Sequence record: OV754623
Direction: 5' to 3' (one strand)
Length of the DNA: 64,000 nucleotides
DNA from: Escherichia phage UGJNEcP1
In this document: piece after piece, positions 3,674-20,709 of the stretch
Layout: each line of letters opens with the position of its first letter
Numbering within the stretch: position 1 is the stretch's first letter
Translations under genes and position numbers: made by a program
The notes under the pieces: generated by a model
Told to the model about the DNA's origin: nothing
Database searches by the model: none
What the model saw: only the letters and a program-made list of their open reading frames with translations

Positions 3674-4426
3674 ATGGCTAATATAATTCGTTGTAAATTA
3701 CCGGATGGTGTTCATCGTTTCAAGCCGTTCACCGTAGCGGATTATAGAGACTTTTTACTAGTTAGAAATGATATCGAACATCGTTCGCCACAAGAACAAA
3801 AAGAAATAATTGCCGATCTGATTGATGATTATTTTGGCGAGTACCCTAAAACATGGCAACCATTTATATTCCTGCAAGTTTTTGCAGGCTCTATAGGCAA
3901 AACAAAAGTTCCCGTTATTTTCACTTGCCCTAAATGCTCTAAAGAAAAAACTGCACCATTTGAGATATATCAAAAAGAACTAGTCGAACCTGAACTTGAT
4001 GTTGCTGGTATAAAAATACGTTTTTCTTTCCCTGAAAAGTTTTATGACAACAAGGCATTAATGATAAGTGAAAACATAAAAGAAATATATTATAATGATG
4101 AATGGTACCCGTGGAATGATTTGACTGAAGAGAACCAAATCCAAGTAATAGAAGCAATAGACATTGACTCGCTCGAGAAGGTTATTGCTTCTATGAACCC
4201 TATTAATTTGACCCTTAGATTAGGTTGTTGTGAACGTCATGTTAAAACATATACTGATATCTTAGAGGTTTTTAAATTGTTAGTTAACCCTGATGAGATT
4301 TTTACATTCTATCAGATAAACCATTCACTAGTAAAGAGTCAATACACGTTGGATTCTATTATGCAAATGATTCCTGTTGAACGTGGTATTGCTTTAACAT
4401 TAGTAGAAAAGGACCATAAAAAATGA
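3674..4426 (+). CDS. 51: baseplate hub assembly catalyst gp51
   Basis: 250 aa; AGGAG SD; TATAAATA 18 nt upstream; synteny. Confidence 0.8.
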
Positions 4427-5595
4427 CAGTATTCCAACGTCCAGGATATCCTAACTTAAGCGTTAAATTATACCAAGATTATTCGGCTTGGCAAGAAAAT
4501 AGATACGTTGAACTCGCAGCAACAATAACAACTTTAACCATGCGAGATTCGCTATATGGAAGAAATGAAGGGATTCTTCAATTTTATGACACTAAAAACA
4601 TCCACACTAAAATGGACGGTAGACAGATAGTTCAAATCTCTGTTTCAAATTCAAACACACCTCTCCAAGTTAGAACTCGAATTTATGGATGTAGACATTA
4701 TTCTGTGTCTGTGGACTCAAAAGGTGACAATATTATTGCAATTGAGCTTGGAACAATACATTCTATAGAGAACCTTAAATTTGGGCGACCATTCTTCCCA
4801 GACGCAGGAGAATCTATACGTGAAATGTTAGGTGTCATATATAAAGACCGTACATTAATTACTCCGCCAATAAACACTATTAATGCTTATGTTCCTGATA
4901 TTCCTTGGACAAGCACATTTGATGATTATTTGGCATATGTCAGAGAATTAGGACTTGCTACAGCGAGTGATAAGTTCGTATTCGTATGGCAAGATATTTT
5001 AGGCGTAAACATGATTGACTACGATACTCTTATTGGTCAGGAAGGCATTAAGATGATTGTAGGCGAGCCAAATACCGTAGGTCAGTATATTCAAGAGCTT
5101 GAGTATCCATTAGTATGGGATTTCACCTGGATGACTAAAGCTAACCAATTTACAAGAGACCCTATTAAAAACGCCACGATATTCGCCCATTCATTTTTAG
5201 ATACATCTATTCCGGTTATTGTTACAGGCGATGGTGATAATGCTATTGTTGTGTCAAGATCTGGTGGATATTCCGAAATGACCTATCGTAATGGATTTGA
5301 AGAAGCAAGTCGTCTTCAGACAATGGCTCAATATGACGGATATGCTAAATGCACTACTACAGGTAATTTTAACATAACGCCTGCTACTAAAATTATATTT
5401 GTTGACCAAAAGAACCAATTCAAATCCGAATTTTACGTAGATGAAGTTATTCATGAGTTATCAAATAACAACTCACAAACTCATCTGTACATGTTTACCA
5501 ACTCAATGGTGTTAGAACCTGTTAACCCAGTTAAGGTTAAAAATGAACTTAAATCTGATTCTACCTCTAAAGAAAATAATTCTACCACAGTCTAA
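4423..5595 (+). CDS. 27: baseplate hub subunit gp27
   Basis: 390 aa (T4 gp27 391 aa); synteny 51-27-28-29. Confidence 0.85.
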
Positions 5596-10280: not shown

Positions 10281-10310
10281 ATAGTATCACACATCCATGT
10301 GTTTGTAAAC
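10281..10310 (-). promoter_or_regulatory. T4 early-type promoter (GTTTAC-N18-TACTAT)
   Basis: Read on the minus strand; overlaps the alt stop; spacer carries the palindrome ACACATCCATGTGT. Confidence 0.5.
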
Positions 10311-12397
10311 TATCCTTGGACAAATTTAAACGGAACTGATTCTAAATCCATTAAAGATGCTAACAATTTCAAACCTTTAGGTGCACTAGTTTTTTCTACA
10401 AATGAGGAGAACGATACCGGCTCATCTGATTCGATTTCACCCGTCATAGCAACCACCTCGCCTGTTTCCATGAGAACATCACCGTCGTAAATGACAGCTT
10501 CATCTAACTGGTCTGAGGACATGACTTCAGCTTGAATAAATTTAAGGTTGGATTCTAAACCTGCACCAGTATCAGATGACGCATCTGTAATTTTATTTAT
10601 CTGCAAGAGAATGCCTCTAGGCAAAATAATTTCTTGCTCATTAGGGTGATTACTCAACTGTCCTGGATAAATCACATTAACTTTATGGGCGCCATCAATA
10701 GCCCATCCAACGTTAACACGGATTTGTTCTGGTGCATGCATAGCTGTTCTTACTTGACTAGGAGAAATAGTAACACCTTCGTCATTATTGTCAATGTTAA
10801 GCTCTTTGCGAACTTCTTCAGGAGCAAGTCCAAGGGCAACGTTCTCTTTAAACCCACCGAAAATAATAGGAGCTAGTGAAGTGGAAACATAGTTTCTGAA
10901 ATAGAATACCTTATTTTTAACCATTGCTTCGTAAATAGGCATTCTGATAGACTGAGCTCTATATAACGTTAGTCCTTCAGGTAAACGGTCTCCATTTAAA
11001 AACGCCGAATCAAGACCATCAATAGCGCGTTTAACTTCATCTTCATCTGCAACATCGTAAAAATCTGGTTTATAACGACCTAACAACATATTATTGATAT
11101 CTATATATGCAGAAGAGGCATATTCACGAATAGCTCGTTTTTCAGCAACAGAGTATTGTTTAGGGTCCCGATTCATTGTTATATTAAAGGTGCCTCTAGC
11201 CGATTCTCGTGCATAAGTATACATCACATTAGACAAGAACGCTGATTTACGTTGTTTCCAAGTTCTTTCAGATACTTCAGCTAAAACGTCGTCAGGCAGT
11301 TGGAAATTATCACGTCTAAAATCTTCAAACCATTCGTCTTTAATAGAGTCTGCAATTTCATTTGCAGCTTCAACAAAAGCAGCTAATGCTTTAACAGATG
11401 TTGTTTTTTCGGTTTTAATTTTCTTAGCAAACTTTTCTAAAGTCGGCTTAATAACACTACCATAAGAAACTTCATCAGCAAATTTAAAGGATTCATCAAT
11501 ACGATTATAAATCTTATTTTCGATATCAGCAACTAAAGTGCCTTTTGCTGTGGACGATGCTTGGGCTAGTACGATTTCATATGCTTCAGGAAGTAATTCG
11601 GCTGTAGCCGGGCCACTAACTTCTTTAGCAGAATTTTCGTATTTCTGGAATAACTCACCTTCTTGTCGGTCAGCTTCTAAAGATTGACTTGCTGCAATAG
11701 CACGACGAGAAATTTTGGTGCGAGCAATAACAGGCTTATCTTTACGTTTTTCTTCTACCGCGGCAATAGAACCAGCGATAGCCGTTTCTTTGGTGACCTT
11801 TTCACCGGTCTTTTTACTCACATAAACTTCGCCAACATCAGAATCTACTTTCGTGTACAACTCTGTGTTAATGTTAGGGATGCCTTTAATATCTTCAATG
11901 TTGGCATTTTTACGAACCATCATCACATAGGTGTGTTTACCTGTGAATTGATACATTGCCGACAATACTTTAAAACGACCACCGGTTTTAGTAGAAACTA
12001 AACGAGCAAGAAGAGTTTGAAGCTGTTGTCCACGTCCTTTCAATTTCTTGGTAGGGAATCGGAACAGAACTGCATCCATACGAAGAGCTTTAACTTGTTC
12101 ATATACTGTATTGAAAATGGTGTTGATTGCATCAATAGGAGCAGGACCAAGGCCATTTTTCAATTCAGCGAGATTACCCTTTTCAGACAGACTCATAATA
12201 ACAACATGAGCGTATTTGTCGCCAAGTTTAACTTGTTTTACAGCGTCGCCTTCGGAAAGGTAAGAGAATAAACGAACTACGATGTTTGTATCGATATCAC
12301 CAATTTTCCAGACTTGTGGAACTTTAGCTTTAGGGTTCAAATTGACGACAGGAAGACTGCCTTCAGATTCAAACACTTCATTTAATTGTTCAGACAT
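10310..12397 (-). CDS. alt: ADP-ribosyltransferase Alt (packaged, modifies host RNA polymerase)
   Basis: 695 aa (T4 Alt 682 aa); position between gene 54 and DNA ligase; late-promoter-like ATAAATA upstream. Confidence 0.75.
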   Translation of the reverse strand: MSEQLNEVFESEGSLPVVNLNPKAKVPQVWKIGDIDTNIVVRLFSYLSEGDAVKQVKLGDKYAHVVIMSLSEKGNLAELKNGLGPAPIDAINTIFNTVYEQVKALRMDAVLFRFPTKKLKGRGQQLQTLLARLVSTKTGGRFKVLSAMYQFTGKHTYVMMVRKNANIEDIKGIPNINTELYTKVDSDVGEVYVSKKTGEKVTKETAIAGSIAAVEEKRKDKPVIARTKISRRAIAASQSLEADRQEGELFQKYENSAKEVSGPATAELLPEAYEIVLAQASSTAKGTLVADIENKIYNRIDESFKFADEVSYGSVIKPTLEKFAKKIKTEKTTSVKALAAFVEAANEIADSIKDEWFEDFRRDNFQLPDDVLAEVSERTWKQRKSAFLSNVMYTYARESARGTFNITMNRDPKQYSVAEKRAIREYASSAYIDINNMLLGRYKPDFYDVADEDEVKRAIDGLDSAFLNGDRLPEGLTLYRAQSIRMPIYEAMVKNKVFYFRNYVSTSLAPIIFGGFKENVALGLAPEEVRKELNIDNNDEGVTISPSQVRTAMHAPEQIRVNVGWAIDGAHKVNVIYPGQLSNHPNEQEIILPRGILLQINKITDASSDTGAGLESNLKFIQAEVMSSDQLDEAVIYDGDVLMETGEVVAMTGEIESDEPVSFSSFVEKTSAPKGLKLLASLMDLESVPFKFVQG

Positions 12398-12437: not shown

Positions 12438-12453
12438 AGAGCCCGAAGGCTCT
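12438..12453 (-). terminator. intrinsic terminator (AGAGCC-UUCG-GGCUCU plus U-run)
   Basis: Tetraloop hairpin followed by TTTTT on the minus strand, between the ligase-region genes and alt. Confidence 0.55.
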
Positions 12454-12641
12454 TAATCCACAATCGGGAGCAAAGTACGATAAACTTCAAAATTAGGGCC
12501 TTTTTCGTACCCATTAACGTTATCTACGAAAACCCGATACGAATTTTCATTAGGAAAATCTAATATAATCTGAGAGCAAGAGGTGGAAACATCTCCACCA
12601 TCCTTCTTAGCTACAATAACTGTTTCTAAATAAGCTTTCAT
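12453..12641 (-). CDS. hypothetical small protein
   Basis: ORF 12453..12662 trimmed to Met 8, whose ATG overlaps the ligase stop (TAATG). Confidence 0.4.
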   Translation of the reverse strand: MKAYLETVIVAKKDGGDVSTSCSQIILDFPNENSYRVFVDNVNGYEKGPNFEVYRTLLPIVD

Positions 12642-14134
12642 TATAAACCTGTCTGGGACCACGGTCCAAATACGTCTTCAAATGAATCCGCTTCTGTTTT
12701 ATCAAAACGGAACCCTTTAATAATTGGAAGGAAAATACCTACAGTACCTTCACGGCCTTTAGAATGAACCCAACCATTACATTCACAATCAGCGATACGT
12801 CCAATTAATTTACCTTCACGAGCTTCGGTCATTAATCGTTCACGGTCTAAATCATGACGCTCGTCTAAAGGAATAAGAACCTTTACACCGTCAACTGTTT
12901 TATGAGTTGTATCTTTAAAACCTGAACCACAATCAGTTGTAATACGACGACAACGTGATACGAGTTCGACACCACCTAATTTGTTAGGGTCTTTAGAGTG
13001 TTCATAGTATCCTACAACTTCTAAAGCGATATCAATAACTTCTTTAAATTTAATTAGGTTCTTAGAGCGTTTGTTTTCCCAATATGAATCACGGTTTTTA
13101 AGGATAATACCTTCAAGACCTTGGTCAACATATTTTTTATAAACCACTTTAGCTTCGTCAAGATTACGAACTAACTGATTTTCAATTGGTTCAATTCGCT
13201 TAAAGCCTTCAGCCATATTTTCAAGAGCAGCAAAACGAACATCATATTTCTGACCTTTAATTTTGCCATCAGAATAGACTTCATCTAAAGGAACATAGTC
13301 CCAGGCTTGAAGAACCATACCTTCCGCTTCTTTAGGAGAAATAGTCCCTTGAAGAGATTTATTTGCTAAACCATTTGAAGTGCTACGGTCTGCAACTTGT
13401 ACTTCTTCGGATTCTTCATTATCGCCAAATAAGAACGACAGGTCATTTCCTGAGCTCACAGCCTTTTTAATATCAAATGAATGATAAACTAATTCACCGT
13501 CGATTAAAACCCCATTAGGGTGTCTTTCACGAGCTTCTTTAGTCATTTCCATTAGTTCATCTGCTAATAGGGTAAGACCATGGTATTCATTACCAGCACG
13601 AGAAAAGAATTGAACACCATCATCGCGAACTTCAGCGAAACAACGAGCACCATCTGCCTTTAATTGAGCAAATGCAGGCCATTTAATATTTTTAGTAATC
13701 AATTTCTCGTCATATGCAGATGCTAACATCTGTGGTTGCAATTGAATAAGTCCAGGCCACACCTTATTCGCAATAGACACTGAAGCACCTACTTCAAGGT
13801 CGCGCATCATTACACGACGAAGGACTTCTACATCATCAGGTTTACCGTCAGCGATATAACCCATGAGCTCTTTAATTGCCGCGTTACCAGTGAGTTTACG
13901 AGTGGCTAATGTGAACTCAATAAAATCCAACATGTCATCTAATTCAAGAAGACCATATGCTTGAGACCTTTCACCTGGTCCCGGCCATTTCTTAATATAA
14001 TACTGGATACCACGTGCATATGTTAAACGATACACACGTTCAAGTAATTTGTTGTCCTTATTTTTCTTAAGGATTTCTTGTTTTGTTTTAGTAGAACCGA
14101 TCGCAGCTATTTGGTTTAAAATATCTAAAATCAT
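12641..14134 (-). CDS. 30: ATP-dependent DNA ligase
   Basis: 497 aa; long near-identical stretches to T4 DNA ligase (YAFAQLKADGARCFAEV with the active-site Lys motif). Confidence 0.95.
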   Translation of the reverse strand: MILDILNQIAAIGSTKTKQEILKKNKDNKLLERVYRLTYARGIQYYIKKWPGPGERSQAYGLLELDDMLDFIEFTLATRKLTGNAAIKELMGYIADGKPDDVEVLRRVMMRDLEVGASVSIANKVWPGLIQLQPQMLASAYDEKLITKNIKWPAFAQLKADGARCFAEVRDDGVQFFSRAGNEYHGLTLLADELMEMTKEARERHPNGVLIDGELVYHSFDIKKAVSSGNDLSFLFGDNEESEEVQVADRSTSNGLANKSLQGTISPKEAEGMVLQAWDYVPLDEVYSDGKIKGQKYDVRFAALENMAEGFKRIEPIENQLVRNLDEAKVVYKKYVDQGLEGIILKNRDSYWENKRSKNLIKFKEVIDIALEVVGYYEHSKDPNKLGGVELVSRCRRITTDCGSGFKDTTHKTVDGVKVLIPLDERHDLDRERLMTEAREGKLIGRIADCECNGWVHSKGREGTVGIFLPIIKGFRFDKTEADSFEDVFGPWSQTGL

Positions 14135-14400
14135 TTGATGTCCTCGATTTTGGTTACGGTTCTATTATAAGCCACTTCATCTAGAAGCGATTTCAGCGTT
14201 TTCTGATAAGTGGTAATCCATTTACCGAGTCCTTCAACATAGTATTCTGAAATGTAGATGAACCCTTGTTCAACACACTCTTTAAATATTTCTGCGTCTT
14301 TTACTGAACGAAACAACGGCCAGTCTCGAAAGAACATGTTAACATGACCGTAGTCACGTGTGGTGTTTTTGCCATCTGTAATATCATGAACTACAAACAT
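14131..14400 (-). CDS. hypothetical protein (30.1 position)
   Basis: ORF track; ATGA overlap with the ligase start. Confidence 0.55.
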   Translation of the reverse strand: MFVVHDITDGKNTTRDYGHVNMFFRDWPLFRSVKDAEIFKECVEQGFIYISEYYVEGLGKWITTYQKTLKSLLDEVAYNRTVTKIEDIK

Positions 14401-14409
14401 AATTAACCC

Positions 14410-15234
14410 TTAACAATTTATAGACCAAGTCCATTTAGACGAATCTAAAGGAAAGTTTTGAATCGTCCACCACGGCTGCATATCAGTTGGTCCTGGGGTT
14501 CGCCAGGTATATGGAGTACGTGTTGTCGAGGGGCCACCAATTTGATTAGGCCATGCACCTGGACTTGTTGCACCAGATTCTTTAAGCAAATCCGCCAATC
14601 GTTTTAAAAGGTCTTCACGATCTGAATCTGAATTATTCTTAGGCAGAACCAAACGAGATTCAATATCATCCCACGTGTGTACACGTTGTGCAGTACGAGG
14701 AATGGCATCACGTTCACCACGAGCCAACCAATAAATCGGTACATTAAGAATTTCTGCCGCATGGTCACAATGATGAGCTAAATCGTCAACGTAACAAATT
14801 ACGTTATATTTTGTTTTAGCTAGTTCGAATAATTGTTCCTTTGAAGAATCATGACCACACATCATTACTTCAGAAAAAGCGCCTGGGAACAAAGCATTCA
14901 AATTAAATTGTCTATTCAATCGAGCATCAATTGAATCACCTAGCGCCGTCACGGCTACAAAATTATAGTCTTCTTTTAGTTTATTGATAACTCGAAGAGC
15001 ATCCGAATAAGGCGCTAAGTAACGAATAAAATCAGAGCGATTATATTTTTCTATTAATTGTTTACCAAGGTTATCGTCGGTATTGAACAGTTTACCAGGA
15101 GAAATAAATTTTTCGTCCTGAATCATTTTTAAAATATGTTCTAATGGAAGATTATATTTTTGGGCAAAATAAGGAAGTCCAGATTGCCAGCTTAAACATA
15201 CACCATCAATATCAGTCAAAATAGTAGGCTTCAT
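14410..15234 (-). CDS. conserved protein (30.2 position) with N-terminal HAD-like DxDG motif
   Basis: 274 aa; N-terminus ILTDIDGVCL resembles HAD motif I. Confidence 0.55.
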   Translation of the reverse strand: MKPTILTDIDGVCLSWQSGLPYFAQKYNLPLEHILKMIQDEKFISPGKLFNTDDNLGKQLIEKYNRSDFIRYLAPYSDALRVINKLKEDYNFVAVTALGDSIDARLNRQFNLNALFPGAFSEVMMCGHDSSKEQLFELAKTKYNVICYVDDLAHHCDHAAEILNVPIYWLARGERDAIPRTAQRVHTWDDIESRLVLPKNNSDSDREDLLKRLADLLKESGATSPGAWPNQIGGPSTTRTPYTWRTPGPTDMQPWWTIQNFPLDSSKWTWSINC

Positions 15235-15689
15235 AAAGAGTCTCTTAATAGGTTTAACACATCAATAAATTCAGCTTCAGTTAATATTGTATCATCTTTT
15301 GTTAGGTGGCTGGCCATGCTGTGCTTCAAAATTTTTCCTTTAGAGGCTTGTAAGGCATCGCGAAACCCCTTGTTTTGGATCGCTGCTTCAAAATATGCAT
15401 TTGTATATAATTCTTTCCATGCTTCAGAGTATCTTGAAAATGGAACTCCTAACCAGAAGAGAGTCCCATGGTCCTGAGCTCTTGCATAAGACCTTCCAGC
15501 TTGCTGTGCGGCCAGTCCTGACAGCCCAAATATACGTCTTTGTTGTTCAACATTTTTCACCTTACATCCTTGGAGAAATCCTTCAAGACCTCCGAATTGA
15601 ATACCATCCATAACGAAAGGCCATTGAGCAAAGTTACTTAATGCACATGACGGCCACTTGAAATTACTTCTTATTTCTAATTCAGACAT
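15231..15689 (-). CDS. NADAR/YbiA-like (DUF1768-type) protein (30.3 position)
   Basis: ORF 15231..15698 trimmed to the first ATG (Met 4); motif LSNF..PF..DG..F...E..LQ..K matches the YbiA/NADAR signature. Confidence 0.5.
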   Translation of the reverse strand: MSELEIRSNFKWPSCALSNFAQWPFVMDGIQFGGLEGFLQGCKVKNVEQQRRIFGLSGLAAQQAGRSYARAQDHGTLFWLGVPFSRYSEAWKELYTNAYFEAAIQNKGFRDALQASKGKILKHSMASHLTKDDTILTEAEFIDVLNLLRDSL

Positions 15690-15900
15690 CTTTAACACTT
15701 ATAATTTCAACATCAGCCCAATGACCGTATCCAGGTATACGGTCTTCGATAGATAAATTTCCGTCATTTTTAGGCATTTTAATTGACGTAACGTATGGTT
15801 CTAAACGGTTTTCTGCATAATACGGAAAAACGTCTGTTACACGATAAGTAACTTCAATCATTTCCGTACCAAACAATTTCTGGATTAATTTATTCAACAT
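15682..15900 (-). CDS. hypothetical protein
   Basis: ORF track; tight minus-strand array. Confidence 0.45.
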   Translation of the reverse strand: MLNKLIQKLFGTEMIEVTYRVTDVFPYYAENRLEPYVTSIKMPKNDGNLSIEDRIPGYGHWADVEIISVKDV

Positions 15901-16087
15901 GTTTCAACCCTTTAATAGGAGATAACTCTTTACCCATACGTATGTCAGAAGTCCAATCAACCCATTGAACAGCATACGCTTCATTGATAATTCCAGCGGC
16001 GGTTTTAAATTCAGGGAGAACTTTAAAAATCACCCCAGGAATTCCAACACCTTTTAATTGGACTGTTTGTGCTATTAAAAATTTCAT
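15890..16087 (-). CDS. hypothetical protein
   Basis: ORF track; promoter-like element upstream. Confidence 0.45.
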   Translation of the reverse strand: MKFLIAQTVQLKGVGIPGVIFKVLPEFKTAAGIINEAYAVQWVDWTSDIRMGKELSPIKGLKHVE

Positions 16088-16111
16088 ATTTTTCCACTTA
16101 CTAAAGAAATC

Positions 16112-16142
16112 ATTATACTCTAATCCGTCCTTGGATATAAAC
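16112..16142 (-). promoter_or_regulatory. possible early-type promoter (GTTTAT-N19-TATAAT)
   Basis: Upstream of the ORF starting at 16087; non-ideal spacer. Confidence 0.3.
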
Positions 16143-16756
16143 TACTTAATGAAATTAATTTCTACTGGATGAACAACAGGTTGAGCAGTGATATATTGAG
16201 TAATCGCTTTCATGACCAAAGCTTCAGAACCAGGATTTTTCTCAACGAATTCACGTGCTCGGTTATGAGCTTCGAGTTCACTCAATAAACCGGAACGCTG
16301 GCATCCACGGTCTTGAGTACCCTGTTCAGATAAAAGGACTACTACATATTTTTCATCGTCGTAGGGCTTAGCCAGTTGAGCAAATGTTCCTTTACTTCCA
16401 AAAGGAGAGTTATGACGCCACATCACACCGTGAGGAGTTTCAACCTTCGTATATTCGTGTGGGCCATTTTTCTTAGTTTCTTGCTGTGGAACTTCATAGA
16501 CCTTAGGGTTAGGACATTCAATAAAATGCTCATCTAAATCGGTCGAGAATATTAAAGTAAAACAATGTCTGAATTTACCAACACCTGCCTGATAAATTTT
16601 ACCTTCAGAAGTTCTAATTTCACAAACCGAGCCAGCATCAGTAACTTCTAAAACTTCAAAAGGCTCGATAAGGTCATATGAGAACATGTTTTTAAGGCGT
16701 GGAGTAATATCCCCATTTTTAAAATTCATTTTATAAAAAGTATTAACTTTAAACAT
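16142..16756 (-). CDS. hypothetical protein
   Basis: 204-aa ORF; tetraloop hairpin then GAGGAAA SD before the ATG. Confidence 0.55.
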   Translation of the reverse strand: MFKVNTFYKMNFKNGDITPRLKNMFSYDLIEPFEVLEVTDAGSVCEIRTSEGKIYQAGVGKFRHCFTLIFSTDLDEHFIECPNPKVYEVPQQETKKNGPHEYTKVETPHGVMWRHNSPFGSKGTFAQLAKPYDDEKYVVVLLSEQGTQDRGCQRSGLLSELEAHNRAREFVEKNPGSEALVMKAITQYITAQPVVHPVEINFIK

Positions 16757-16768
16757 AATTTCCTCAGT

Positions 16769-16784
16769 GGGAGCCGAAGCTCCC
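16769..16784 (-). terminator. tetraloop hairpin GGGAGC-UUCG-GCUCCC (terminator or leader stability element)
   Basis: Between the ORFs at 16792 and 16756; no U-run; directly precedes the SD. Confidence 0.35.
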
Positions 16785-16791
16785 AGTTAAA

Positions 16792-17157
16792 TTAGATATC
16801 GAATTCGTTCAGAACTACATCAAAGATTGCTTCCAGGTGTTCAGGTTTAGCTCGGTTACTCAGGATATGACGAATCCAAGTTTTAACCAGAAGTTTACGA
16901 TTAACACCGTTCCAGCAAGGATGAGTACCTAAATCACGCTGACGGAAATCATCATCTAATGCAATTTTAAAATTTGAACCTTCCATCGTGATTGAAACCG
17001 TGATGCCATTTTCAAATCGCATATAAACATAATTAGGAGTCATGCACTGTTCGATTTCACAAACTGTACCGTTTTCATGTTTCCATAAGCAAATAACTTC
17101 AGAAGAACCAGCGATACCGTTAGAAACATATTTACGTTCGAAGTTGATGTAGTTCAT
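16792..17157 (-). CDS. hypothetical protein
   Basis: ORF track; own early-type promoter at 17199..17227. Confidence 0.55.
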   Translation of the reverse strand: MNYINFERKYVSNGIAGSSEVICLWKHENGTVCEIEQCMTPNYVYMRFENGITVSITMEGSNFKIALDDDFRQRDLGTHPCWNGVNRKLLVKTWIRHILSNRAKPEHLEAIFDVVLNEFDI

Positions 17158-17198
17158 TTTATTCTCCAGATGTTTAAGTTGTTTGTTGGTACAGGTCT

Positions 17199-17227
17199 AT
17201 AATAACATAACCTGTACCAAAGTAAAC
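17199..17227 (-). promoter_or_regulatory. T4 early-type promoter (GTTTAC-N17-TATTAT)
   Basis: Upstream of the ORF starting at 17157; -10 sits between inverted repeats GGTACAGGT / ACCTGTACC. Confidence 0.55.
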
Positions 17228-17231
17228 TGTT

Positions 17232-17600
17232 TTATGCAACTTTAATCCAATTGTCTAAATTTAAAACACCTTTGGCTTTCATTTTTTCGATCAGGTTATC
17301 TGCTGTAATGCGTCCATTTTGATACCATGTAACATCTTCAGAGTAACCAGTTTCTTCGTCAACATATGTTTCTGAACGAATTTTACCGGTAATAATAGTT
17401 TTTAATTCGTATGTGTCACCTGTGAAAAAGTTTGCTAACACAATTTTCCAAGAGAAATCATCTGAAGGACCTTCAGGGGTCATACAACCTACGAACTCAA
17501 ATTGCTCTTTGTATAACATCCACTGGAATTCTTTAATTTCGATAGCTTTATAACCATCGTGGTCTTTACATTTGATGTATGAGTTCAGATTGATTTTCAT
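17232..17600 (-). CDS. hypothetical protein
   Basis: ORF track; own early-type promoter at 17643..17671. Confidence 0.55.
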   Translation of the reverse strand: MKINLNSYIKCKDHDGYKAIEIKEFQWMLYKEQFEFVGCMTPEGPSDDFSWKIVLANFFTGDTYELKTIITGKIRSETYVDEETGYSEDVTWYQNGRITADNLIEKMKAKGVLNLDNWIKVA

Positions 17601-17642
17601 TTTGTTCTCCGGTTTGTTTTATCGATTAGGTGGTACAAGTCT

Positions 17643-17671
17643 ATAGTAACACATCCTACAGGAGAGTAAAC
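17643..17671 (-). promoter_or_regulatory. T4 early-type promoter (GTTTAC-N17-TACTAT)
   Basis: Upstream of the ORF starting at 17600. Confidence 0.55.
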
Positions 17672-17707
17672 ATCTTTTTAAACTTTTTCTGCCCTAAACG
17701 CACAAAA

Positions 17708-17725
17708 GGGAGACCGAAGTCTCCC
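17708..17725 (-). terminator. intrinsic terminator (GGGAGAC-UUCG-GUCUCCC plus U-run)
   Basis: 7-bp GC-rich stem, UUCG loop, TTTT downstream on the minus strand. Confidence 0.6.
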
Positions 17726-17730
17726 TAAAA

Positions 17731-17910
17731 TTATGCAATAACCTTTCCAAAACGAGAAGCATCATCTCGAAGAACTGCACGTGCTCTGCGCATGATCTTC
17801 TCAACTGTTTGATTAATACGAGAGTTCGACCCACGCTTGTATCCAGCGCGTTTAGAGGTACCATCAACTTTCTTTTCAACTGCTTTCTTTGCTTTAGCTT
17901 GTTTTGCCAT
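17731..17910 (-). CDS. small Lys/Arg-rich protein (30.9 position), 59 aa
   Basis: Hand-translated (MAKQAKAKKAVEKK...); ends just before the hairpin plus T-run terminator at 17708..17725; below the ORF-track cutoff. Confidence 0.4.
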   Translation of the reverse strand: MAKQAKAKKAVEKKVDGTSKRAGYKRGSNSRINQTVEKIMRRARAVLRDDASRFGKVIA

Positions 17911-19146: not shown

Positions 19147-19717
19147 AAAAGTTTCGGATTTGTTCCCAATTCAGAGAACGAAGATTATTACGAGAGTACT
19201 GAATTACTTCAATACCAGCTTGTTTAAGAATGTCTGCCCAATTTTCAGGAGATCGGTCATATAATTCTGCATATACAACCTTTTTAATACCTGACTGTGT
19301 AATAGCTTTAGTGCAATCAGGACATGGAGAAAGTGTCGTATACAACGTAGCACCTTCAATAGAATTACCTTTACGAGCTGCAAACAAAATTGCATTCAGT
19401 TCCGCATGGATTTCGTTATTGGCAGACCATGCACTATGAGCAGCCCGATGTTCTTTAGCCAAAACAAAATTATCGGCCCGTCCAAATGCTGTAGTGCCTT
19501 CTTTATGCCCAGCAACGATGACTGGGATTGGTTTATTCTTCAACCAACCATTTTCAGATGCATGTTCGCAACAGTTAACGCCACCTGCAGGTGAACCGTT
19601 ATACCCAGTAGAAATAATGCGCCCATCTTTTTCAATGACTGCGCCAACTTTCCATGAACAACATTTTGATTCTTGAGAAATCAGATATGCAATCTGAAGG
19701 TATGTGCTAGCTTTCAT
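19136..19717 (-). CDS. cd: dCMP deaminase
   Basis: 193 aa as T4 Cd; zinc motifs HAE (HAELNAI) and PCxxC (SPCPDCTKAI). Confidence 0.9.
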   Translation of the reverse strand: MKASTYLQIAYLISQESKCCSWKVGAVIEKDGRIISTGYNGSPAGGVNCCEHASENGWLKNKPIPVIVAGHKEGTTAFGRADNFVLAKEHRAAHSAWSANNEIHAELNAILFAARKGNSIEGATLYTTLSPCPDCTKAITQSGIKKVVYAELYDRSPENWADILKQAGIEVIQYSRNNLRSLNWEQIRNFCGE

Positions 19718-20709
19718 TATTGAACCTTATTAATATAAGTTAACAGCTCTTTAGTTTGTTCCCAACTGATGCACGCATCGGTAACGGAAACGCCATAGGA
19801 CATATTATCAGAAATTTTTTGATTTCCTTCATGTAGGAATGATTCTATCATAATTCCTTTGACCAAATCATTAGCTGCTAAATTTTTACCAATACCAATT
19901 TGATTGCTATAATGCCCATCAGCGTTTGCATGGCTACAGTCAACCATTACATAATGATTCAGACCTACTGCCCTTGCTTTGTTAGAAGCTTCTTGAATAT
20001 CAGAAGAATGATAGTTCGGGCCGTTGGTCCCGCCACGCAATACGATATGCGTATTCTGATTACCTTCAGCTTCAACAATGCCTACAGTACCATCGACGTC
20101 CATACCCATATACCGATGAGGCCAGGCGGCACTATACATCGCGTCTGTAGCTACTTTAATAGAACCATTGGTTGCGTTCTTGAAGCCTACGCACATCGGT
20201 AGACCTGAAGCAATTTCACGATGTGTCTGACTTTCAGTCGTACGGGCGCCAATAGCAACCCATGAGAAAATACCAGAAAGATACTTAATCGTGAATGGGT
20301 CTAATACTTCAGTTGCTAATGGAAGTCCCATACGTAGAAGTTTACGACACAATGTTCGTGCAACTATAAGACCGTGGTTCATATCAAAACTTCCGTCAAG
20401 ATATGGATCATTTACAAGACCTTTCCAACCTACGGTAGTTCGAGGCTTTTCAAAATAAACGCGCATCACTAACAGAACATTAGGAAGACGAGTTTGAAGT
20501 TCAGCCAGACGTTTGCCGTATTCAACAGCAGCAATAGGGTCATGAATTGAACAAGGACCTACAACAATAAGTTTGCGTGGGTCTTCACCGTTCATAATCG
20601 AATTAACTTGTTCGCGATGAGAAGCCACTTGTGATGCGTAAGCTTCCGACAAAGGAATAATCTCAGCTAGTTCTTTTGGAGAAATAAGTTTTCCGACGAC
20701 AGGTAACAT
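19717..20709 (-). CDS. 3-deoxy-D-arabino-heptulosonate-7-phosphate (DAHP) synthase, class I (AroG/AroF/AroH type)
   Basis: 330 aa; GPCSIHDP, MRVYFEKPRTTVGWKGL, AIGARTTESQTHRE; putative metal ligands Cys (GPCS), His (CSHAN), Glu (IESFLHEG), Asp (TDACI), matching E. coli AroG as recalled. Confidence 0.85.
   Translation of the reverse strand: MLPVVGKLISPKELAEIIPLSEAYASQVASHREQVNSIMNGEDPRKLIVVGPCSIHDPIAAVEYGKRLAELQTRLPNVLLVMRVYFEKPRTTVGWKGLVNDPYLDGSFDMNHGLIVARTLCRKLLRMGLPLATEVLDPFTIKYLSGIFSWVAIGARTTESQTHREIASGLPMCVGFKNATNGSIKVATDAMYSAAWPHRYMGMDVDGTVGIVEAEGNQNTHIVLRGGTNGPNYHSSDIQEASNKARAVGLNHYVMVDCSHANADGHYSNQIGIGKNLAANDLVKGIMIESFLHEGNQKISDNMSYGVSVTDACISWEQTKELLTYINKVQ

Follow-up and report, generated by a model that had tools for sequence, protein, structure and literature searches.

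Escherichia phage UGJNEcP1 carries an intact orthologue of the T4 anti-DarT factor gene 30.3 (adfN), encoding a NADAR-fold protein

The gene at 15231..15689 (minus strand) in the 64,000-nucleotide stretch of Escherichia phage UGJNEcP1 analysed here (OV754623; hereafter, the window) is an orthologue of the characterised T4 gene 30.3 (AdfN), the function of which has already been published (2024-2025). The gene very probably encodes AdfN, a small, single-domain ADP-ribosylglycohydrolase of the NADAR fold that counters DarT1.

Gene order and identity of the 30.3 locus

Positions 14000-17000 of the window were 100% identical to Escherichia phage UGJNEcP2 (OV877511.1), which is classified in Straboviridae, Tevenvirinae, genus Mosigvirus (the genus of RB69). 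A T4-type early-gene string occupies the minus strand from 10.3 to 18 kb of the window and includes the following features:

10310..12397 (about), minus strand: alt
12453..12641, minus strand: alt.1
12641..14134, minus strand: DNA ligase (30)
14131..14400, minus strand: 30.1
14410..15234, minus strand: 30.2 (274 aa)
15231..15234, minus strand: overlap of the adfN stop and the 30.2 start (ATGA)
15231..15689, minus strand: 30.3 (adfN; T4 30.3 orthologue), 152 aa, phage NADAR of the core-only type
15234..15278, minus strand: adfN codons 138-152, C-terminal helix, intact
15321..15323, minus strand: adfN codon H123, last-strand residue marking phage NADARs
15561..15584, minus strand: adfN codons E36 to K43 (EGFLQGCK), with the catalytic Glu/Lys pair of NADARs
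15682..15689, minus strand: overlap of the 30.4 stop and the adfN start, 8 nt (ATGTCTGA)
15682..15900, minus strand: 30.4
15890..16087, minus strand: 30.5
16142..16756, minus strand: 204-aa ORF
16792..17157, minus strand: 30.7
17232..17600, minus strand: 30.8
17731..17910, minus strand: 30.9

The ORF reported at 15231-15689 in an earlier note, made from the letters alone, was recovered with exactly these coordinates. It begins with ATG, the same start as annotated for T4 30.3; translation from a GTG located three codons further upstream would yield a product of 155 aa instead. The start/stop overlaps with 30.4 and 30.2 at both ends of adfN, arranged as annotated in T4, indicate a translationally coupled early-gene string. 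The output of a promoter and terminator scan was no better than that for shuffled sequence and was left unused.

The adfN protein matched Pfam PF08010 (Phage_30_3, 'Bacteriophage protein GP30.3') with E=4e-69 and 231.2 bits (cut-off 36) over profile positions 1-138 of 138, far more than chance would produce, and it also matched PHROG 652. It was identical to T4 gp30.3 (NP_049816) at 146 of 152 positions (96%) with no gaps. The six window-to-T4 substitutions (K11R, H74R, E89P, I120V, M125I, and H128G) leave E36, K43, and H123 untouched, and none of them falls on a known catalytic residue. Both genes have 30.4 upstream and 30.2 downstream, followed by ligase; they differ in these substitutions and in genus, T4 being a Tequatrovirus. 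The codon differences from T4 comprised 37 synonymous and 6 non-synonymous ones, which indicates that adfN is under purifying selection. With tblastn, homologues were detected in 1,510 phage records. About 730 of these records reached at least 60% identity; the remaining 780 fell below 60% and come from phages infecting Klebsiella, Aeromonas, Acinetobacter, Vibrio, Ralstonia, and others.

The nucleotide identity to T4 across 12641..17910 (-) was mosaic: 86-91% in 30.3, 30.7, and 30.9 and only 63-70% in ligase, 30.1, 30.2, 30.4, and 30.5. This pattern suggests either short-segment recombination between T-even genera or unusually strong constraint on 30.3, 30.7, and 30.9. The internal out-of-frame ORF 30.3' annotated in T4 (75 aa) has a counterpart at 15449..15553 (-) that keeps the start position and stops after 34 codons; since its frame is interrupted at 89% nucleotide identity, the ORF is not conserved, which argues against 30.3' being a real gene. 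The 204-aa ORF fills the slot occupied in T4 and RB69 by the gene 30.6 of about 95 aa; tblastn against the loci of T4 and RB69 gave nothing for it, its sole clear match being PHROG 17531 (unknown function), with weak matches to other PHROGs of unknown function. At 19717..20709 (-), a full-length DAHP synthase (3-deoxy-7-phosphoheptulonate synthase) of the AroF/G/H type was found (TIGR00034, E=2.4e-128; NF009395, E=1.2e-136), directly adjoining the dCMP deaminase gene, where T4 has the small ORFs cd.1-cd.5. It resembles an auxiliary metabolic gene of phages, serving the shikimate pathway. The anti-DarTG2 macrodomain gene tk.4/adfM had no tblastn match in the window.

NADAR fold and relation to other NADAR proteins

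The earlier note had assigned the protein to the YbiA/NADAR superfamily and had named a DUF1768 profile match as the check. For the adfN protein itself this match was absent: PF08719 (NADAR, formerly DUF1768) gave nothing at E<=1, a phmmer search of PDB sequences nothing at E<=10, and the NCBIfam and PADLOC scans no match. The NADAR link is therefore based on family-level, profile, and structural evidence. In an alignment of 56 diverse gp30.3 family members (A1), 23 matched PF08719 on their own (best E=1.5e-7), and several homologues are named 'YbiA (DUF1768 family)' by JGI. The A1 profile retrieved E. coli YbiA (2b3w) from the PDB at E=0.006, and hhalign of A1 against YbiA gave a probability of 94.1% and E=1.3e-7 over residues 15-122. 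E36 and K43 (motif EGFLQGCK) were invariant in the 56 sequences and aligned in the profile comparisons with the E...K of YbiA SEHYFQAQKF; the catalytic Glu/Lys of NADARs correspond to E88/K95 in the E. coli C7 NADAR. The signature given in the earlier note, LSNF..PF..DG...E..LQ..K, was right in its residues and their order (ALSNFAQWPFVMDGIQFGGLEGFLQGCK) and schematic in its spacing, as three residues separate LSNF from PF and six separate DG from E (A16-L-S-N-F-AQW-P-F-VM-D-G-IQFGGL-E36-GF-L-Q-GC-K43). H123, also invariant in A1, follows strand 120-122 of the predicted model; the last-strand residue is His in phage NADARs, Glu in the YbiA family, and Asp in DarG1/BC4488 (PMC11125620, PMC11543638). 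The predicted model has the NADAR fold and consists of a core-only single domain, with 13 residues preceding the first core helix. The claim of the earlier note that the adfN protein belongs to the NADAR/YbiA superfamily thus finds support in transitive sequence evidence, in the profile-profile comparison, and in the predicted fold.

E. coli YbiA (PF08719) is the closest solved structure by sequence, at about 16-21% identity to the adfN protein. It is annotated 'N-glycosidase YbiA' in MG1655, and together with the JGI names this would fit a housekeeping N-glycosidase that clears reactive riboflavin-pathway intermediates or serves NAD/ADP-ribose metabolism. Such a role has, however, a very slight chance of being the correct one: the Glu that defines the YbiA family on the last strand is replaced by His123, the published phylogeny puts the gp30.3 cluster nearest to the DarG1 NADARs, and the phenotype demonstrated is counter-defence. 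The ybiA gene is chromosomal, lying between rhlE and dinG, unlike the phage-borne adfN; it is reported to belong to a LexA-controlled operon and has been linked to riboflavin metabolism.

DarG1 (BC4488 family; Geobacter lovleyi NADAR, PDB 8bat) differs from the adfN protein in having an N-terminal extension (219 vs. 152 aa), an Asp instead of His at the last-strand catalytic position, and an adjacent DarT gene. There is no DarT1 toxin gene beside adfN, its neighbours being 30.4 and 30.2; no ART domain was found in any of the eight products of 30.1 to 30.8, nor any defence-system match with PADLOC. Moreover, T4 AdfN cannot replace DarG1 in uninfected cells. The homologues flagged 'ncbi' were considered as bacterial or DarT-linked candidates and rejected, as their contigs look phage- or prophage-like (integrase, endonuclease, and small ORFs) and contain no DarT.

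Probable counter-defence function and genomic context

The DarTG1 resistance of T2 and T4 was mapped to gene 30.3 through RB69 x T2/T4 recombinants, and the gene was renamed adfN, for anti-DarT factor NADAR (Johannesman et al., Nat Commun 2025; PMC11825919). According to the same work (PMC11825919), T4 and T2 without adfN form no plaques on DarTG1 hosts, RB69 is rescued by adfN expression, the AdfN-T4 mutants E36A and K43A are impaired in vivo, ADP-ribose is removed from DarT1-modified DNA by purified AdfN-T4 and not by E36A, and the thymidine-targeting DarTG2 is unaffected by AdfN-T4. In vitro, the T4 phage NADAR hydrolysed guanosine-ADPr and not thymidine-ADPr (Toxins 2024; PMC11125620), and the G-ADPr activity was confirmed (Toxins 2026; PMC12945103). 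In a 2025 transposon screen (HIDEN-SEQ), insertions in 30.3/adfN were lost specifically on DarTG1 hosts. Where the host has no DarTG1, the growth of T4 is normal even when adfN is missing. The T4 protein was shown to be a guanine-specific DNA ADP-ribosylglycohydrolase, both necessary and sufficient for the escape of T-even phages from DarTG1 (Johannesman 2025; Toxins 2024; HIDEN-SEQ 2025). The methods of PMC11125620 give the T4 phage NADAR (gp30.3) construct as 'residues 1-208', although T4 gp30.3 has 152 aa; tags may have been counted in, or a different protein may be meant.

The enzymatic activity and the anti-DarTG1 phenotype are thus taken from the literature on the T4 protein, and the orthology, fold, active-site residues, and intact frame were seen for the window gene. 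The earlier note had proposed, by inference, that the gene counters DarT-like toxins by stripping ADP-ribose from guanine in DNA; the demonstration of this role for the 96%-identical T4 orthologue supports the proposal, and we infer that the window allele would behave like AdfN-T4. In the proposed mechanism, host DarT1 would ADP-ribosylate guanines of the infecting phage DNA and block its replication, and AdfN would hydrolyse the guanine-N2-ADP-ribose bond and restore replicable DNA. AdfN would act like the host DarG1 antitoxin, but as an orphan carried by the phage. It would neither bind nor inhibit the toxin, and thymidine-ADP-ribose (DarT2) would not be its substrate. The probability that the protein instead inhibits DarT1 by binding, in the manner of AdfA and with no enzymatic action, is close to negligible. 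Toxin binding is known for some counter-defence proteins, including AdfA-RB69(R164H) (PMC11825919), but AdfN-T4 was found not to bind DarT1 (no two-hybrid interaction), the catalytic mutants were impaired, and the purified protein cleared ADP-ribose from DNA (PMC11825919); the catalytic residues are conserved in the window protein.

The substrate range may extend beyond DarT1 lesions in DNA. Clearance of G-ADPr from both RNA and DNA in vitro is reported for every NADAR family, the T4 phage NADAR among them (PMC12945103), other ADP-ribosylating defences were raised as a possibility by the authors of the AdfN paper, and the family is spread over diverse phages and hosts (Aeromonas, Vibrio, Acinetobacter, Ralstonia, and jumbo phages). 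These observations would suit a more general eraser of nucleic-acid modifications, with RNA guanosine-ADP-ribose or the lesions of other guanine-targeting ADP-ribosyltransferase defences as the main substrates and DarTG1 as one target. The only known in vivo phenotype is, however, directed against DarTG1, and we regard this wider role as possible but rather unlikely; it would extend the AdfN explanation rather than replace it.

The earlier note had also placed the gene about 3 kb from alt. The measured distance is 2.8 kb, with alt.1, ligase (30), 30.1, and 30.2 in between. Its hint that this proximity matters found no support in distant phages, where homologues lie in tRNA clusters or by SbcCD-like genes, away from alt. 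Specifically, the homologue is located within or alongside the tRNA gene cluster, and not beside ligase, in Aeromonas 44RR2.8t.2 (4001-4450 of neighbourhood L013), Salmonella Melville (4004-4447 of L015), and Ralstonia RSP15 (3995-4513 of L018). It adjoins SbcCD-like genes in Vibrio D525, and in jumbo phages it is surrounded by unrelated ORFs, alt being absent within 4 kb. In an RB49-like Krischvirus, 30.3 directly abuts ligase. The proximity of adfN and alt probably reflects conserved gene order and little beyond. It is accordingly very improbable that the protein is a self-directed eraser balancing the phage ADP-ribosyltransferases Alt, ModA, and ModB, a role that would explain why alt is nearby on the same strand and that could draw on the retention of the alt-ligase-30.2-30.3 order in an Acinetobacter T4-like phage. 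Besides the positions of the homologues in other lineages, the T4 record describes Alt as a mono-ADP-ribosyltransferase acting on RNA polymerase, a protein, whereas NADARs act on base-linked ADP-ribose (guanosine-ADPr, not thymidine-ADPr), and the normal growth of adfN-less T4 on hosts without DarTG1 also speaks against it. In the public record of Klebsiella phage phi1_146002 (PP889458.1; 4001-4441 of L014), the gp30.3/NADAR homologue is labelled 'virion RNA polymerase', an evident misannotation.

In uninfected cells AdfN-T4 gives no protection against DarT1, and it is of little help to T5 and Bas25; a requirement for a further T-even factor (a co-factor or localisation) has been proposed. AdfN-Bas32 and AdfN-Bas60, from T5-like and Vequintavirinae phages, are likewise phage NADARs; they too overcome DarTG1, with specificity for guanine lesions. 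They belong to other, independently acquired NADAR clades, however, and are effective in the absence of infection and for unrelated phages. Full activity of the gp30.3 type, in contrast, is restricted to infection by T-even phages. The missing T-even partner might be encoded in the same early-gene string, for example by the translationally coupled, HAD-like gp30.2; if so, the locus would be a two-part counter-defence module and not a lone enzyme, though we consider this improbable. The gp30.2 protein has an N-terminus resembling HAD phosphatases (MKPTILTDIDGV) with a DxDGV motif (Pfam HAD_2 sub-threshold, E=0.02) and a C-terminal tail rich in Pro, Thr, and Trp. In the sampled 4-kb neighbourhoods of 30.3 homologues, a 30.2 homologue was present about 1 kb or less downstream only in Straboviridae with the T4 gene order (T4, RB69, Acinetobacter LemonAid, and Klebsiella phi1_146002). 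It was absent within 4 kb in seven lineages (an RB49-like Krischvirus, 44RR2.8t.2, Melville, D525, two phages of Ralstonia, and a metagenomic phage of roughly 300 kb), and the gene of 254 aa that follows the jumbo-phage homologue bears no relation to 30.2. With co-location limited in these neighbourhoods to phages with the T4 gene order, neither 30.2 nor another 30.x neighbour was supported as a conserved partner.

Integrity of the allele in comparison with RB69

RB69 gp30.3 (NP_861905) is the published non-functional allele, and RB69 is sensitive to DarTG1 (PMC11825919). RB69 belongs to the same genus as UGJNEcP1 and the DNA of the two alleles is nearly identical, but one extra T at gene position 411 of RB69 yields a 137-aa protein without the C-terminal helix. 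In a three-way DNA alignment, this T was absent from the window and T4; the window gene encodes the full 152 aa, and helix 138-151 is present in its predicted model. Truncation at the RB69 frameshift point reduced AdfN activity (PMC11825919). Exact matches in IMG/VR numbered 0 for the RB69-type junction and 5 for the intact junction, which, at such small numbers, is consistent with the RB69 lesion being unusual.

Many truncated 30.3 alleles, of 83-126 aa, are present in sequenced T-even phages (homologues P0008, P0013-P0017, P0052, and P0102), and in some database products PF08010 is fused to 30.7 (PF06919), 30.8 (PF06019), PF11097, or PF26911. Together these truncations and fusions indicate that the 30.3 region often decays or suffers deletions, in line with expectation if the gene is an accessory one for counter-defence.

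UGJNEcP1, a Mosigvirus, has a seemingly functional copy of this characterised counter-defence gene and, unlike RB69, should resist DarTG1 and form plaques on DarTG1 hosts. The allele may therefore be of use in host-range prediction, UGJNEcP1 being predicted to infect DarTG1-bearing E. coli that block RB69.
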